From positions 4,321 through 68,320 of the forward strand of contig CANQLH010000002.1 of the NCBI GenBank assembly GCA_947624655.1: a DNA stretch of 64,000 bases. Direction: 5' to 3'. Positions within the stretch are counted from its first letter, which is position 1. The number at the start of each line of letters is the position of its first letter. Below are positions 37,300-40,938 of the stretch, in pieces. The position numbers and the translations under genes were made by a program. The notes under the pieces were generated by a model. The model worked only from the letters and a program-made list of their open reading frames with translations. It had not been told where the DNA came from and searched no databases. The DNA comes from an uncultured Clostridia bacterium. Its GTDB lineage: Bacteria; Bacillota; Clostridia; TANB77; CAG-508.

Positions 37300-37611
37300 T
37301 TAGTCAAATATATAAGCTACTCCTTCAGTTATTTCTTTCCCTGACTGAAGCCACTTAAACTGATATTTACTACTATCACCGTTTAAATTCCAATTTAAAG
37401 ACTCCTTTAAATCAGATGTATCAAGGAAAAATTCAATTCCTCTTTCTTTAATCTGATTTTCCGTCCAAAACATATTTGTCCTGTTATCAAGAACAGATAT
37501 TGTTTTTATTTTCAAACGAGGACTATCTGATACCCATAGTTTGTCGGATGACGGTTTTATACTTTCCACTTTTACTATAAATTTAGCTTTATGTAAAATC
37601 TTTTTGCGCAT
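37300..37611 (-). CDS. Hypothetical early protein
   Basis: AAGGAGG RBS directly downstream of twister 1. Confidence 0.7.
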   Translation of the reverse strand: MRKKILHKAKFIVKVESIKPSSDKLWVSDSPRLKIKTISVLDNRTNMFWTENQIKERGIEFFLDTSDLKESLNWNLNGDSSKYQFKWLQSGKEITEGVAYIFD

Positions 37612-37654
37612 TGGTTATTCCTCCTTTAAAATTTTGAAATTTTCCTATGTAGCT

Positions 37655-37734
37655 TCAAGGGCTTGTGACCTTCGGCGGACTTTCACCGGCTGCATTAAAG
37701 CAGGATTTTATTTCCTGCTCCACTCTGCATTGAT
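37655..37734 (-). ncRNA. Twister ribozyme 1 (P5-type permutation)
   Basis: UGCAGAGUG-P1(GAGCAGGA/UCCUGCUU)-UAAUGCAGC-P3(CGGUG/CGCCG)-P4(AAGG UCACAAGC CCUU); T1 CAC/GUG; predicted cut 37697/37696. Confidence 0.9.
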
Positions 37735-37791
37735 TTATCCTTTTATTAAAGCGTAAATAATCCATATAACGCCTATAATTGTCATAACCAT
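37735..37791 (-). CDS. 18-aa hydrophobic peptide
   Basis: CAGGAGGG RBS; MVMTIIGVIWIIYALIKG*. Confidence 0.55.
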   Translation of the reverse strand: MVMTIIGVIWIIYALIKG

Positions 37792-37817
37792 ATTTTTCCC
37801 TCCTGTAAAATATATTC

Positions 37818-37852
37818 TTATTCTGCAATTTCAAGGGCTTGTAACCTTCGGC
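37818..37852 (-). repeat. Partial twister (P4 hairpin plus UGCAGAAUA)
   Basis: GCCGAAGGUUACAAGCCCUUGAAAUUGCAGAAUAA; no local UAAUGCAGC strand. Confidence 0.7.
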
Positions 37853-37906
37853 AAATTATCCACTATTATACCTTTCACGTTAATATAAAAATATTATACT
37901 TTTATA

Positions 37907-38293
37907 TCATTCCAATATATAGCAAGGAATGACTGTCATAACTTCAGATGCCGTTGCTGCCAATTTTTTCCTCTCTTCATAATGTGCTTTTGAAGATTCA
38001 TCTGCACCATATTTCTTTTCAAAATTTTCATAGTTTTCCAAAGGGTAAAGATTAAATAAATAGTAAAGCTTCTTGTTACAGCAATAAATTCTGTCCATTT
38101 CACCGTCTAATTTACAGCCCCATACTCCTGATTTTTTAACTATTTTAAAATATTCAAATTGTAAGTTAGGCTGTAAACTTTTAAATTTTTCTATTCCTCT
38201 CACTACACCGCAGGTTTTTCCATATTCATTTTTACAAGTTATAGAACGTGGAGATAATTTAACTATCCTGTTTTTTACATCTTCTATTTTCAT
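37907..38293 (-). CDS. Hypothetical early protein
   Basis: AAGGAGG RBS inside the repeated leader. Confidence 0.7.
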   Translation of the reverse strand: MKIEDVKNRIVKLSPRSITCKNEYGKTCGVVRGIEKFKSLQPNLQFEYFKIVKKSGVWGCKLDGEMDRIYCCNKKLYYLFNLYPLENYENFEKKYGADESSKAHYEERKKLAATASEVMTVIPCYILE

Positions 38294-38374
38294 TTTTGTT
38301 TCCTCCTTTGAAATTTAAAAAATTATATATCTGATGTTTTACAGCTTCAGGGCTTGTGACCTTCGGGAGACTTC
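38291..38374 (-). repeat. About 83-bp direct repeat (twister 3' half + RBS + ATG), second copy at 38641-38723
   Basis: catttttgtttcctcctttgaaatttaaa..atctgatgttt..acagcttcagggcttgtgaccttcgg.agacttc in both; weaker copy at 37609-37683. Confidence 0.9.
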
Positions 38375-38394
38375 TTGTCGACTTCTACTGTTAA

Positions 38395-38643
38395 TCAGTA
38401 GTCGAGGAAGTATATATCAATATCGCTATTCATTATATCCGTAGCTTTAAAAATCATATCTCCGACCATAAGCCAGTCGGGAGAATAGTCTTCTTCAATT
38501 CCTGGTGCTTTGAGTGCGTCTTCAATATACTGCTGTCTACCATATATGTGTATGGTATGAAAACCAAGCTCCATAGCTTTTTCCAGTAACTCAGTAAGTG
38601 TAAATGTTTCAACAATAATTTTATCTGTAATTTTATCTGTCAT
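38395..38643 (-). CDS. Hypothetical acidic early protein
   Basis: AAGGAGG RBS inside the repeated leader. Confidence 0.7.
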   Translation of the reverse strand: MTDKITDKIIVETFTLTELLEKAMELGFHTIHIYGRQQYIEDALKAPGIEEDYSPDWLMVGDMIFKATDIMNSDIDIYFLDY

Positions 38644-38694
38644 TTTTGTTTCCTCCTTTGAAATTTAAATAATTTCCTATCTGATGTTTACAGC

Positions 38695-38804
38695 TTCAGG
38701 GCTTGTGACCTTCGGCAGACTTCCACCGGCTGCATTAAAGCAGGAAATATAAGGTTGCTTGTTACTTTAATTCTTTATAATTTCCTGCTCCACTCTGCAT
38801 TGAT
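38695..38804 (-). ncRNA. Twister ribozyme 2 (P5-type permutation, extended P1)
   Basis: UGCAGAGUG-P1(GAGCAGGAAAU/AUUUCCUGCUU)-UAAUGCAGC-P3(CGGUGG/CUGCCG)-AGG UCACAAGC CCU; predicted cut 38737/38736. Confidence 0.9.
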
Positions 38805-38815
38805 AATTTTTGTCC

Positions 38816-39241: not shown

Positions 39242-39496
39242 TTATTGACTTGTTGCCGGCTCCGTCTGAGAAAAGCCGAAAAATGCAGCCTTTACCATAA
39301 TTAATTTTGATTTGGTTTCGGACGTATCGGGTATTTTAACCTTACAGGGCTTCCATATTTGGGTCTTAAAAAGTGCCTTGCTGCCTTTTTTAACTTGCCG
39401 CCCTAAACGTTGCCATCCTGCATAGGTCTGTACATTTTCGGTTATTCCGTGCAAAATCATTTCACTTGATATAATTTCAGTGTTAGTTATTGCCAT
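39242..39496 (-). CDS. Small ArdC-like N-terminal ssDNA-binding domain protein
   Basis: TYAGWQRLGRQVKKGSKA..IW..FF..SQT; start moved to MAITN behind AAGGAG. Confidence 0.75.
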   Translation of the reverse strand: MAITNTEIISSEMILHGITENVQTYAGWQRLGRQVKKGSKALFKTQIWKPCKVKIPDTSETKSKLIMVKAAFFGFSQTEPATSQ

Positions 39497-39614
39497 TTTC
39501 AACAGCTCCTTTCTGATTTTTCTTATAATTGTCATAGCTTACATCAACCAAAAATATAGGTATTAAGCCAATAACAATAGTTATAATAATTTCTAAAAGC
39601 TTGATTATTATCAT
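39483..39614 (-). CDS. 43-aa single-TM peptide
   Basis: MIIIKLLEIIITIVIGLIPIFLVDV..; AAGGAAG RBS. Confidence 0.55.
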   Translation of the reverse strand: MIIIKLLEIIITIVIGLIPIFLVDVSYDNYKKNQKGAVENGNN

Positions 39615-39656
39615 TCTTTTAACTTCCTTCCTTTGATTTTTCAAATTTGACTTTTT

Positions 39657-39747
39657 ATGGACTTGTAACCATTTCAGCAAAATAGGATTTGCCGAAGTGC
39701 ATTAAATGGACGGCTTTAATTATTTCAAGTCGTCCGTTTACTCTGTT
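39657..39747 (-). ncRNA. Twister ribozyme 3 (variant)
   Basis: ACAGAGUA-long P1-UAAUGCAC-P3(UUCGGCAAA/UUUGCUGAA)-AUGG UUACAAGU CCAU; compensatory T1 UAC/GUA and T2 AC/GU; weak P2; predicted cut 39704/39703. Confidence 0.7.
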
Positions 39748-40065
39748 TGAAAAAACAAGGATTATTACAGAATTGTTGATAAAAAATATTCTCATTTTAG
39801 GGCTTTATGCTTTACGTTATAAGCAATTAATTTCACCTGTAAAGGCTATTTTTTTCTTGTCATAACGGCGTTTAATGCTCCCTCGTGGTGGTATAATGTC
39901 ACCGACCCGGTCGCGTGCATTTTGCGACTGCTTCCATAATATCAACAAGCTGTATCAATAAGCTTGTTACGTGTATCATAGTCACCGCCCCGGCTGCCTT
40001 GGTTATGTGCCGGCTCTGTTATTTTTTCAACGTCTGACGGATGGCAGACGGACCGCAAAAGTCTA

Positions 40066-40084
40066 TATTCAGTTATCAAGGTTC
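40066..40084 (-). promoter_or_regulatory. rrn boxA-like antitermination element
   Basis: GAACCUUGAUAACUGAAUA resembles Firmicute rRNA leader boxA (CUUGAAAACUGAAUA). Confidence 0.5.
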
Positions 40085-40306
40085 ATAATATACAGTGTTT
40101 GAAAAAAGTTTTATACTTGTAAAAGAATTACAGGTGTAAAGGGTTTTAAACGCTCCTTCTCTTTTATAGGGCTTGAAAATTTCAAGATATACGCCGCATC
40201 AAGGGCTTTGATGTGCCTTTTAATGCAACCCACTACGAAATACAAGGGCTTTTACTGTATTTCCTTTATCAGGAACAAATATAACAACGGGTTACTACGG
40301 GTTACG

Positions 40307-40369
40307 CTTGCAATTGGTTCGGCTTACGCCTTAACAGTACCGCCAACGTGAAGGCTTGCAAATGGTACC
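40307..40369 (-). ncRNA. HDV-like (CPEB3-like) ribozyme
   Basis: P1 GGUACC/GGUACU with G.U; P2 UUUGCAA/UUGCAAG; P3 GCC/GGC; L3 UUCACGUU; P4 GGC GUAA GCC; J4/2 CCAA; predicted cut 40370/40369. Confidence 0.85.
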
Positions 40370-40409
40370 ATATGGCAGACCGTGGAAGTCTGCCGACTAT
40401 AAAGTCTGA

Positions 40410-40757
40410 TTAATTATTAAAATTGTCTAATACCTTCTCGGCAAACTCAGTTAAAAGATTTTCTATTGCTTGCCGTCTTTCATCATACTTCAAATCATAA
40501 TTGCCTCTGATTTTTTCGGCCTTCAATTCATACTCATTTACGATGTCGTAATTTACTTTTTTGCCGATAGGTGAATACCCGGTTGAAATTATCAAGCCGT
40601 TTACATCGTAATAGTCACAAGACCAACCATATATACCGGCAGAATAAGCAAACGGGGTCTCGTAAGTTAATAAGCTCTGAAGTCCACAATAGCCGACCGA
40701 AAGTATATTATTATAGGTGCTTCTTATTGCTTTGAAAGTTGTTTTAATTTTTGTCAT
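40410..40757 (-). CDS. Hypothetical protein, first gene of the early operon
   Basis: AAGGAGGT RBS; GYCGLQSLL..YSAGIYGWSCDYY..ISTGYSP. Confidence 0.8.
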   Translation of the reverse strand: MTKIKTTFKAIRSTYNNILSVGYCGLQSLLTYETPFAYSAGIYGWSCDYYDVNGLIISTGYSPIGKKVNYDIVNEYELKAEKIRGNYDLKYDERRQAIENLLTEFAEKVLDNFNN

Positions 40758-40790
40758 AGTAGTAACCTCCTTTGAAGTTATGCCGCTGTC

Positions 40791-40819
40791 TTGACTTTTC
40801 GGCGGCTATGTGGTATTAT
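40791..40819 (+). promoter_or_regulatory. SigA-type promoter pointing antisense into the early leader
   Basis: TTGACT-17-TATTAT with TG extension. Confidence 0.6.
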
Positions 40820-40909
40820 GAGTGGTGAGAGTGTAAGCCCTTCAGCCTTGGCGCTGCCCGGTGGGTAGCTTTGAGGGCTTCGGGGTTGCTCTCTCTTGAT
40901 GTTGATACT

Positions 40910-40938
40910 ATTATATCACCCCGTGGGTTATATTTCAA
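40910..40938 (-). promoter_or_regulatory. Strong SigA-type early promoter
   Basis: TTGAAA-17-TATAAT with TG extension; overlapped by ATATA-NN-CCACGG motif repeated inverted near 40956. Confidence 0.85.

Follow-up and report, generated by a model that had tools for sequence, protein, structure and literature searches.

Five predicted self-cleaving ribozymes of three classes in one phage operon, and their possible role in dividing its transcript into gene cassettes

The stretch of DNA analysed in this study (the window, 64,000 nucleotides, nt) covers coordinates 4321-68320 of a 96.7-kb contig (CANQLH010000002.1) in the assembly GCA_947624655.1, which is assigned to an uncultured Clostridia bacterium. 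The window carries a temperate phage, which is either integrated or shares its contig with host genes. On its minus strand, a leftward operon contains five ribozyme motifs of three classes within 2.7 kb. In the direction of transcription, these are a hepatitis delta virus (HDV)-like element of the theta type, a variant twister, a hammerhead and two canonical twisters. All five are intergenic and lie on the sense strand, and all the ribozyme motifs detected in the assembly (1.87 Mb, 69 contigs) fall in this 2.7 kb. We believe, with a probability of roughly 0.6, that a long RNA read from a promoter-like site at 40938-40910 is self-cleaved by these ribozymes into gene cassettes. What the DNA itself shows is the motifs, the class of each at the level of sequence and structure, where they lie, and traces of selection on their base pairs. 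From them we infer a single transcript that would be cleaved in vivo, with an effect on gene expression.

The predicted cuts are at 40370/40369 (HDV-like), 39704/39703 (variant twister), 39181/39180 (hammerhead), 38737/38736 and 37697/37696 (canonical twisters), and the pieces between them are 666, 523, 444 and 1040 nt long. Four of the five motifs precede a strong Shine-Dalgarno sequence, with 47-93 nt from the cut to the ATG. An original prediction, made from the letters of the sequence alone, had proposed this array. Its coordinates for the five motifs, their minus strand and their intergenic position were borne out, the piece sizes were reproduced from the predicted cuts, and its statement that four motifs sit shortly before a ribosome-binding site (RBS) agrees with the distances given above. 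The classes that it named also stood. The two twisters (38695-38804 and 37655-37734) exceed the Rfam gathering score, and the variant twister (39657-39747) belongs to its class by compensatory pseudoknots despite a sub-threshold Rfam score. The hammerhead (39176-39228), sub-threshold in Rfam, has a complete core, a unique descriptor match and covarying stems I and III, and the HDV-like ribozyme (40307-40369) has a full HDV-like fold and covarying relatives with no Rfam match. The search with Rfam models that had been proposed as a check therefore gave a divided result: both canonical twisters were above gathering, the hammerhead and the variant twister were below it, and the HDV-like element was unmatched.

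The canonical twisters are both of type P5 and cover the full Twister-P5 model (RF02684, positions 1-58 of 58). The copy at 37657-37729 scored 55.0 bits, and the copy at 38697-38799, which has a long P1 loop, scored 44.6 bits, compared with a gathering score of 37.6 bits. These were the only two matches to RF02684 across the 1.87-Mb assembly, and none was found in 150 other host-family genomes. We take twisters to cleave at the U^A step between P1 and P2; the position of this step within the motif is likewise our assumption, and the sites were taken from the alignment. The P1 stems of the two copies are identical. The copies have a block of 25 nt at 100% identity and one of 48 nt at 96% in common, and their main difference is the long insert in the P1 loop.

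The 3' half of the twister, which comprises part of P3 and the P4 hairpin, is present four times in the operon, and the original prediction overlooked two of these. Both additional copies are on the minus strand, at 38338-38374 (repeat families D4 and D6) and at 37823-37859 (repeat family D4). Neither has a 5'-half motif within 200 nt upstream, and judged by their sequence they are dead remnants. Such a half might in principle be completed by an adjacent 5' half to form a permuted twister. Behind the remnant at 38338-38374 come a 5' untranslated region and a Shine-Dalgarno sequence that repeat those of the full copy, which lies 350 nt upstream (97 nt, 73% identity). The half-twisters show that the ribozyme-plus-RBS unit is a repeated module, which was duplicated and broken in place. 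A pattern of the twister module gave two matches in IMG/VR, both unrelated, and 57 matches in the species genomes, which is about the chance level, none of them with a twister 5' half within 130 nt. A 20-nt pattern of the twister 5' half gave no match in the metagenome contigs.

These remnants also favour another explanation, namely that the array is partly decayed. Its modules would have spread by duplication or recombination, some copies would still cleave, and the array would have little adaptive role. The canonical twisters and the hammerhead would then most likely be active, and the variant twister, the HDV-like element or both would be inactive relics. The two 3' halves without a 5' half fit this explanation, and so do the near-identical blocks and the identical P1 of the full twisters, which point to recent duplication or conversion. 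On the other side, all the motifs are still in the sense orientation and still intergenic. We consider such decay unlikely as the overall explanation, and the variant twister and the HDV-like element bear on it directly.

The variant twister, at 39657-39747 on the minus strand, resembles type P5 and scored 23.7 bits (E = 0.089 in a 5-kb search) against the gathering score of 37.6 bits. Both pseudoknots (PK1 of 2 base pairs, bp, and PK2 of 3 bp) can form together with P1, P2 and P4, and the conserved loop bases are present. Compared with the canonical copies, PK2 is changed from GUG/CAC to GUA/UAC and PK1 from GC/GC to AC/GU. P4 is AUG/CAU, and its middle pair, A-U in the canonical copies, is U-A. 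P1 pairs at seven of eight positions, and P2 has two Watson-Crick pairs and an A·C mismatch. The bases that form PK1 and PK2 are those that we presumed for the class, and this presumption agrees with the covariation seen. A pattern search with the loop and the PK2 strand of the variant twister retrieved L102 and L103, which are both phage twisters and both have AC as the free PK1 partner, as required. L102 has the same pseudoknot combination as the variant twister and scored 50.9 bits, above gathering, and L103 scored 36.4 bits.

High-throughput assays of natural twisters, in the available part of the report, indicate that mismatches in P1, P2 and P4 are tolerated and those in the pseudoknots are not (PMC11662667). 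The variant twister is probably active, perhaps attenuated, because PK1, PK2 and P4 were kept by double changes and flaws of the P2 kind are tolerated. Its low score and its P2 mismatch would suit a relic of a decayed array; compensatory double changes in PK1, PK2 and P4 are not expected from drift alone. As a separate observation, the twister of L103 (8526-8719, minus strand), a phage contig, has a tRNA approximately 50 nt downstream of it, which suggests that twisters, like theta ribozymes, can adjoin phage tRNAs.

The hammerhead is of type I. Its core occupies 39176-39229 on the minus strand, and a RAGATH-1-like 5' extension carries the element to 39251. The Rfam model Hammerhead_1 (RF00163) scored 28.0 bits at 39175-39229 (gathering 34; E = 8e-4 in a 5-kb search), and RAGATH-1-hammerhead (RF03152) scored 36.6 bits at 39176-39251 (gathering 56.3). 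The core is complete. Stems I, II and III have 6, 5 and 5 bp, respectively, stem III ends in a GCAA loop, and GUC stands before the cut. For type I we assumed the rules of a CUGANGA ... GAAA ... NUH^ core and three stems with stem I open. A descriptor of this kind matched this site alone on both strands of the 1.87-Mb assembly and gave no match in 200 block shuffles of the contig. On the sequence evidence, 39175-39229 is accepted as a hammerhead, and it is not filed under RAGATH-1 because the RF03152 score is below gathering.

Relatives of the hammerhead were found in two Agathobaculum phages, in one host-family genome (G247) and in eight IMG/VR contigs (L168-L175). In the Agathobaculum phages, the motif again lies between genes and immediately ahead of one. 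The complete type I parse was obtained in all four sequences of the Agathobaculum-phage and host-family set and in seven of the eight IMG/VR loci, and Rfam made no call on the Agathobaculum phage hammerheads or on the type I copies in L168-L175, though the descriptor parses them. Stems I and III differ in sequence yet pair fully in the window, AB434P2/P3, G247, L171 and L174, and at least five distinct combinations of stem I and stem III, all paired, occur among the relatives. Stem II and its loop are nearly invariant among them and hence give no covariation information. The pairs of the hammerhead and of the HDV-like element were counted by custom scripts, and MAFFT alignments were poor at the variable stems.

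A second Rfam ribozyme on the same strand was found near the hammerhead in seven of the eight IMG/VR relatives, and five of these seven pass gathering. The distance is approximately 0.4-1.5 kb in six relatives and about 2 kb in one. We also observed that in L168-L170, L172 and L173 the type I hammerhead is followed, approximately 350 nt away, by a type II hammerhead above gathering. In L171 (2196-3782, plus strand), it is followed by two type-P1 twister matches 0.5 and 1.5 kb away, and in one IMG/VR relative a type III hammerhead lies about 2 kb upstream, directly before a tRNA.

The HDV-like element occupies 40307-40369 on the minus strand, 40 nt past the stop codon of a protein gene and directly after a hairpin, and its predicted catalytic C is at 40317. 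The parse comprises a 6-bp P1 that begins at the cut with a G·U pair, a 7-bp P2, a 3-bp P3, an 8-nt L3, J1/4 GU, a GNRA-capped P4 hairpin of 3 bp and J4/2 CCAA. P1.1 would consist of one C-G pair plus a second pair or a mismatch, and it does not vary in any of the relatives. No Rfam family matched the element at E ≤ 10, either in 5 kb or with 141 nt alone. The nested double pseudoknot and the C at the first position of J4/2 are what we take to be the rules of the HDV-like architecture, and the descriptor was written by ourselves after the candidate had been seen. L3, J1/4 and J4/2 presumably resemble those of a mammalian HDV-like ribozyme.

IMG/VR was searched with the P3/L3 core and J1/4, with P1 left free, and 55 loci were returned, approximately the chance expectation. 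The full-parse filter demanded C-N-A-A, a complement of P1 located 5-14 nt upstream and at least 5 bp in P2. It was passed by nine of the 55 loci (eight distinct sequences) and by the window. Shuffled flanks gave a mean of 0.091 passes per 56 instances, and shuffles of the window's own flanks passed in 5 of 2000 cases. When the catalytic C was replaced by A, G or U, the decoys passed solely in loci that also pass with C. Across nine sequences, position 1 of P1 is G·U in eight, and positions 2-6 of P1 and the five P3-proximal pairs of P2 show 2-4 pair types each; these loci were pre-filtered on pairing, and the flank shuffle is the control for this filter. L049 lies directly 3' of tRNA-Thr in an array of 19 tRNAs, and most of the other parsed relatives are in tRNA-rich phage stretches. 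L101 has a single, distant tRNA. Such tRNA surroundings match those of the published theta ribozymes (PMC10879173). The P4 region of L095 has the same UAA-hairpin-GAA arrangement as the window, and its stem is compensated.

The data indicate that 40307-40369 is, as far as its sequence tells, a theta-type HDV-like ribozyme of the orphan, non-tRNA subgroup, because its core recurs in phage tRNA arrays within complete folds in which P1 and P2 covary. The CCAA of its J4/2 is unlike that of all eight relatives and would fit an inactive relic in a decayed array; the element retains every paired element and the catalytic C, which argues against decay. In a separate observation, the theta-type HDV-like ribozyme of L101 (approximately 3265-3294, plus strand) is preceded by a hairpin and a U-run rather than by a tRNA, a layout of hairpin then cut like that in the window.

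The idea of self-cleavage into cassettes depends on a message that spans the array. The strong promoter that the original prediction had placed at 40910-40938 agrees with our search. The site (minus strand, TTGAAA, a 17-nt spacer and a TG-extended TATAAT) matches the consensus at 11 of 12 positions, by consensus match only, and ranks first among the minus-strand matches in 34000-42000. Opposite it lies a divergent unit on the plus strand, which opens with small open reading frames (ORFs) and a helix-turn-helix (HTH) gene. Among the other promoter-like sites on the minus strand, a second strong one is at 36121-36093, and weaker ones are inside the operon. The first terminator-like hairpin downstream on this strand is at 34287-34318, just past an integrase-family ORF (34345-35310), and no terminator-like site was found on the minus strand from the promoter down to 34318. 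One transcript that spans all five motifs is plausible from this arrangement.

The transcript would begin with a structured 5' leader (40758-40905, minus strand), which is G+C-rich and contains a long irregular hairpin at approximately 40827-40895. The minimum free energy of the leader is -39.2 kcal/mol (z = -3.8), and none of 200 shuffles was as stable. It matched no Rfam family at E ≤ 10, and nothing similar turned up in the phage records. The leader could be a 5' stabiliser or an unrecognised regulatory RNA. Directly before the HDV-like cut is another hairpin (40374-40394, minus strand) with a 7-bp stem and a 7-nt loop, followed by AUAU. It would form the 3' end of the first mRNA after cleavage by the HDV-like ribozyme. 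A tRNA-like minihelix was also considered for this hairpin and was dropped: the stem has 7 bp, ARAGORN was negative and the T-loop fit was loose.

Behind the HDV-like element is a non-coding stretch of 559 nt (39748-40306, minus strand). Its ORFs are at most 46 amino acids (aa) long and none has an RBS, in line with the original statement that the 666-nt piece holds no convincing ORF. This piece consists of the HDV-like element, the non-coding stretch and the 5' part of the variant twister. The fold of the non-coding stretch is not significant (z = -1.5), and no similarity to it was found in the IMG/VR loci or the phage records searched. As an observation in its own right, 10 of the 25 copies of AAGCCC on the minus strand of the window fall within 37659-40880 (3.2 kb). 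Four of these are the P4 loops of twisters. The other six are scattered, and four of them lie in the non-coding stretch (three in 40169-40251 and one at 39800). The scattered motifs may be ribozyme debris or chance. A partly decayed array would account for such a stretch, with no significant fold and several debris-like AAGCCC motifs.

Under the reading that we prefer, self-cleavage into cassettes, the leftward operon would be read as one long RNA from the sigma-70-type promoter at 40938-40910. This RNA would cut itself co-transcriptionally at five sites, with no need of a protein. These ribozyme classes leave 5'-OH and 2',3'-cyclic phosphate ends. The first mRNA, with RNA structure as its cap, would consist of the leader hairpin and the gene orf115 and would end in a hairpin and a 2',3'-cyclic phosphate. 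It would be left clean and hairpin-ended because the HDV-like ribozyme cuts at its own 5' edge. Transcription would continue past this cut and yield a 666-nt non-coding RNA that starts with the folded HDV-like ribozyme. Three coding pieces (523, 444 and 1040 nt) and the remainder of the operon would follow, and every one of them would start with a 5'-OH and the folded remnant of a ribozyme. The outcome would be that the stability and the translation of neighbouring cassettes are uncoupled.

Several points weigh against this reading. Three of the five motifs are below the Rfam thresholds, and the HDV-like element is unseen by every Rfam model. The descriptors for the hammerhead and the HDV-like element were written from assumed class rules after the candidates had been seen. 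In the variant twister, the short P2 contains an A·C mismatch and P1 is mismatched at one position. In the HDV-like element, J4/2 reads CCAA in the window and CUAA in all eight relatives. Decay of modules does occur in this operon, as the two dead half-twisters show. In addition, weaker promoter-like sites exist inside the operon, which leaves some doubt that there is just one transcript. The first genes of the first and the last piece, orf115 and orf103, have homologues in other phages with no nearby ribozymes, and the ribozymes are therefore not tied to these genes.

The same anatomy would also serve a decay timer. The product of the glmS ribozyme, which has a 5'-OH end, is degraded by RNase J. 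If the 5'-OH ends made here were degraded by an RNase J of the Firmicute type, the early message would be shorter-lived or expressed in a gradient. Each cut is followed by a folded remnant, a very strong Shine-Dalgarno sequence and a start codon within 47-93 nt, an arrangement that speaks against such a timer. Folded 5' ends and strong Shine-Dalgarno sequences act as 5' stabilisers in Bacillus. The uncertain host assignment of the contig also counts against it. The accessible text of a review notes that processing could yield transcripts that differ in stability or translation efficiency (PMC6765202), which is in its favour. We regard this possibility as improbable, somewhat more so than decay of the array.

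A tentative extension of the cassette reading, which we also think has a small chance of being right, is that the ribozyme-plus-RBS units are portable cassette junctions. Any self-cleaving class would serve at such a junction, and the array would both process and shuffle the early region. Recombination in the repeated twister units would insert, duplicate and delete cassettes, and the half-twisters would be its scars. The theta-type ribozyme would act as a terminator-independent maker of an mRNA 3' end. If true, this would give a function to hundreds of orphan, non-tRNA theta ribozymes.

The original prediction added that circular mRNAs were possible, and this part found no support. Internal pieces with a 5'-OH and a 2',3'-cyclic phosphate would be joined into circular or spliced RNAs by an RtcB-type ligase or by ribozyme ligation. 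The end chemistry of these classes fits RtcB, and the hammerhead and twister reactions are reversible in principle. RtcB gave no match in the assembly, which is 92.5% complete and in which the host of the contig is uncertain; the control was positive in 10 of 14 genomes. The absence of RtcB carries small weight because of this completeness and this uncertain host. A 424-aa ORF with an RNA_ligase domain (30.8 bits) is encoded on another contig of the bin and could be taken as a candidate; however, the RNA_ligase family joins 5'-P to 3'-OH and needs healed ends. A search with PF09511 (T4 Rnl1) gave no match in the assembly, but the control genomes gave none either. As a side observation, the contig of the 424-aa ORF, C16 (44.9 kb, 38.8% G+C; L166 946-2220, L167 1408-2526), carries an ATP-dependent DNA ligase as well as this RNA_ligase-domain protein, and it is probably another mobile element or mis-binned.

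Published work also bears on the circles. The 3' fragment of an HDV-type ribozyme keeps its active fold and cuts off anything ligated to it, according to the available part of the source (PMC8782182). By analogy, a junction ligated at the 5' end of the 666-nt piece would be cut again, since the HDV-like fold there stays whole. In the accessible text on prophage hammerhead arrays, circular or spliced products were sought and none was detected (PMC3088659). Taken together with the missing RtcB, this makes joining of the pieces very improbable, far more so than the other alternatives considered here.

The genes that would be carried by the pieces are small, and none of the operon ORFs reached a curated family threshold in Pfam, PHROGs or NCBIfam. 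The first gene, orf115 (40410-40757, minus strand, as are all the genes in this paragraph), encodes 115 aa and had no match in these three collections. It has 21 IMG/VR relatives with 42-61% identity; no Rfam ribozyme at gathering was found in the 18 of these 21 loci that were searched, and the relatives showed no similarity to the non-coding stretch. For the 523-nt piece, a transmembrane (TM) peptide and an ArdC-like protein had been predicted. The former stood, as a hydrophobic, transmembrane-like ORF of 43 aa (39483-39614) behind a Shine-Dalgarno sequence and with no family. For the latter, the 97-aa ORF at 39242-39535, whose likely start is ATG 39496 behind a Shine-Dalgarno sequence, the Pfam ArdcN match fell just below the cut-off (E = 3e-4, 21.4 bits compared with 22.6; profile positions 48-101 of 123). 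It also matched phrog_25027 at 1.4e-6 and phrog_7245 (anti-restriction) at 0.0031, and it had no IMG/VR relatives. From these scores, the ORF is ArdC-N-like at most, and a C-terminal metalloprotease domain is not possible because the ORF has just 97 aa. The 43-aa ORF extends over the start of the ArdC-N-like ORF, an overlap that hints at translational coupling.

The gene content predicted for the following pieces, one ORF in the 444-nt piece and three in the 1040-nt piece, agrees with what was found. The sole gene of the 444-nt piece is orf105 (38816-39133, 105 aa, no family; minus strand, like those that follow). The 1040-nt piece holds orf82 (38395-38643, 82 aa) and orf128 (37907-38293, 128 aa), both with no family, and a hydrophobic mini-ORF of 18 aa (37735-37791) behind a Shine-Dalgarno sequence. 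The last piece opens with orf103 (37300-37611, 103 aa), which has approximately 70% DNA identity to two uncultured phage records. In the one phage record examined, no ribozyme at E ≤ 0.1 was found within 6 kb on either side of the orf103 homologue. A role of these genes in host takeover is a guess from gene position.

The window encodes genes for phage replication and for lysogeny. Among them are a DnaE-type polymerase, exonuclease V/helicase, NrdD, RecJ, a DnaB-like helicase and a processivity factor. It also encodes a methyltransferase and the integrase-family ORF at 34345-35310, and on its plus strand a Bro/ANT antirepressor accompanies an HTH gene of the Cro/C1 type. The same contig has a leader of ribosomal protein L10 outside the window. 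In view of this leader, what the contig holds is either a prophage or a join of phage DNA with host DNA. The G+C content is 31-39% along the whole contig compared with a bin median of 29.2%, and the contamination of the bin is 7.7%. For these two reasons the assignment of the contig to this host is uncertain, and the contig may not belong to the host. ARAGORN found no tRNA genes on the 96.7-kb contig. The sequencing runs listed as carrying this DNA were four DNA runs of one study, with no RNA run among them. No close relative of the operon was found in IMG/VR, 185,579 species genomes, the metagenome contigs or 400 host-family genomes, and the DNA search of the 400 host-family species genomes gave just short AT-rich or RBS matches and one hammerhead-like match. 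In a separate observation, the late genes on the plus strand of this phage include a skipping-rope RNA in their midst (61134-61228, plus strand, 48.0 bits compared with a gathering score of 36.7). Skipping-rope RNA is an orphan structured class for which self-cleavage was absent in the published tests, as given in the available part of the source (PMC5737381).

The role of ribozyme clusters in bacterial and phage DNA is a long-standing question, as the accessible texts of two sources make clear (PMC3088659, PMC6765202). The operon described here is a compact test case, with one promoter and five ribozymes of three classes in 2.7 kb. Dead half-copies beside full ones provide built-in controls, and the variant twister has compensatory pseudoknots. 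The theta-type ribozyme in an mRNA setting suggests a role for non-tRNA theta ribozymes, namely to cut messages and give them a hairpin 3' end without stopping transcription. If cleavage is confirmed, it would support the view that self-cleavage itself is needed, and not one particular motif.

Prophage ribozyme clusters, mixed classes, the ideas of processing and of circles, and HDV-like ribozymes of gut phages, including non-tRNA ones, are already published. In the literature searched, whose scope left out supplements and primary twister papers, we found neither an HDV-like ribozyme that shares an operon with twisters and a hammerhead nor half-ribozymes that mark cassette borders. A theta-type HDV-like ribozyme that shares an operon with twisters and a hammerhead is apparently new, and it is not a new principle.

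The closest comparison is with the prophage hammerhead arrays of Perreault et al. 2011 (PMC3088659). In the available part of that study, the arrays flank genes, and three arrays gave the expected products in vitro and one, which flanks ardA, also in E. coli. Processing of long phage transcripts into mRNAs of one or a few genes, with possible circles, was already proposed there (PMC3088659), and the processing idea for ribozyme arrays also appears in the accessible part of a review (PMC6765202). The original prediction had inferred that the array cuts a message into cassettes. The sense orientation, the intergenic position and one apparent transcription unit agree with the published arrays; the idea had been put forward before, and cleavage in this operon is predicted. 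The same-strand ribozymes near relatives of the hammerhead in IMG/VR also accord with this processing idea. As in the arrays of Perreault et al., several sense-strand ribozymes stand between single genes or short blocks of a prophage operon. In those arrays, the flanked genes vary between phages, and one array flanks the anti-restriction gene ardA (PMC3088659). Unlike them, this operon has three classes including an HDV-like one, and it is known from sequence. Unlike the ardA-flanking array, its link to anti-restriction is a sub-threshold resemblance to ArdC-N.

Shared gene neighbourhoods of twisters and hammerheads led to the discovery of twister-sister, pistol and hatchet, as described in the accessible text of the review (PMC6765202). 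Like those neighbourhoods, the operon has unrelated classes in equivalent intergenic places near phage-like genes. The conclusion given in that text is that efficient self-cleavage is needed and the exact motif is unimportant (PMC6765202). In contrast to this operon, HDV-like ribozymes are not listed among the co-occurring classes in the available part of the review.

Theta ribozymes are minimal HDV-like ribozymes of gut Caudoviricetes (Kienbeck et al. 2024, PMC10879173). The available part of that study reports 526 hits that are not associated with tRNAs; they are mostly non-coding and more than 96% sense-oriented, and that part assigns them no function. Like theta ribozymes, the element in the window has a P3/L3 core and a J1/4 identical to those of IMG/VR phage elements in tRNA arrays, with a P1 of 6 bp. 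It also has J4/2 C-N-A-A, though this pattern was a filter of the parse. Unlike the tRNA-associated subgroup, it has no tRNA on its contig, and in this it matches the published non-tRNA-associated hits (PMC10879173, available part). It further differs from theta ribozymes in a short P4 hairpin, in a J4/2 of CCAA and not CUAA, in its place behind a protein gene and a hairpin, and in a setting in an operon with twisters and a hammerhead.

A protein-dependent counterpart is found in other phages. RNase III processes the early polycistronic transcripts of T7 and SP82. In common with that processing, the predicted cuts here lie between genes of an early operon, just upstream of strong RBSs, and would give separately stable mRNAs. 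Unlike RNase III, which leaves 5'-P and 3'-OH ends, the RNA of this operon would cut itself and leave 5'-OH and 2',3'-cyclic phosphate ends.

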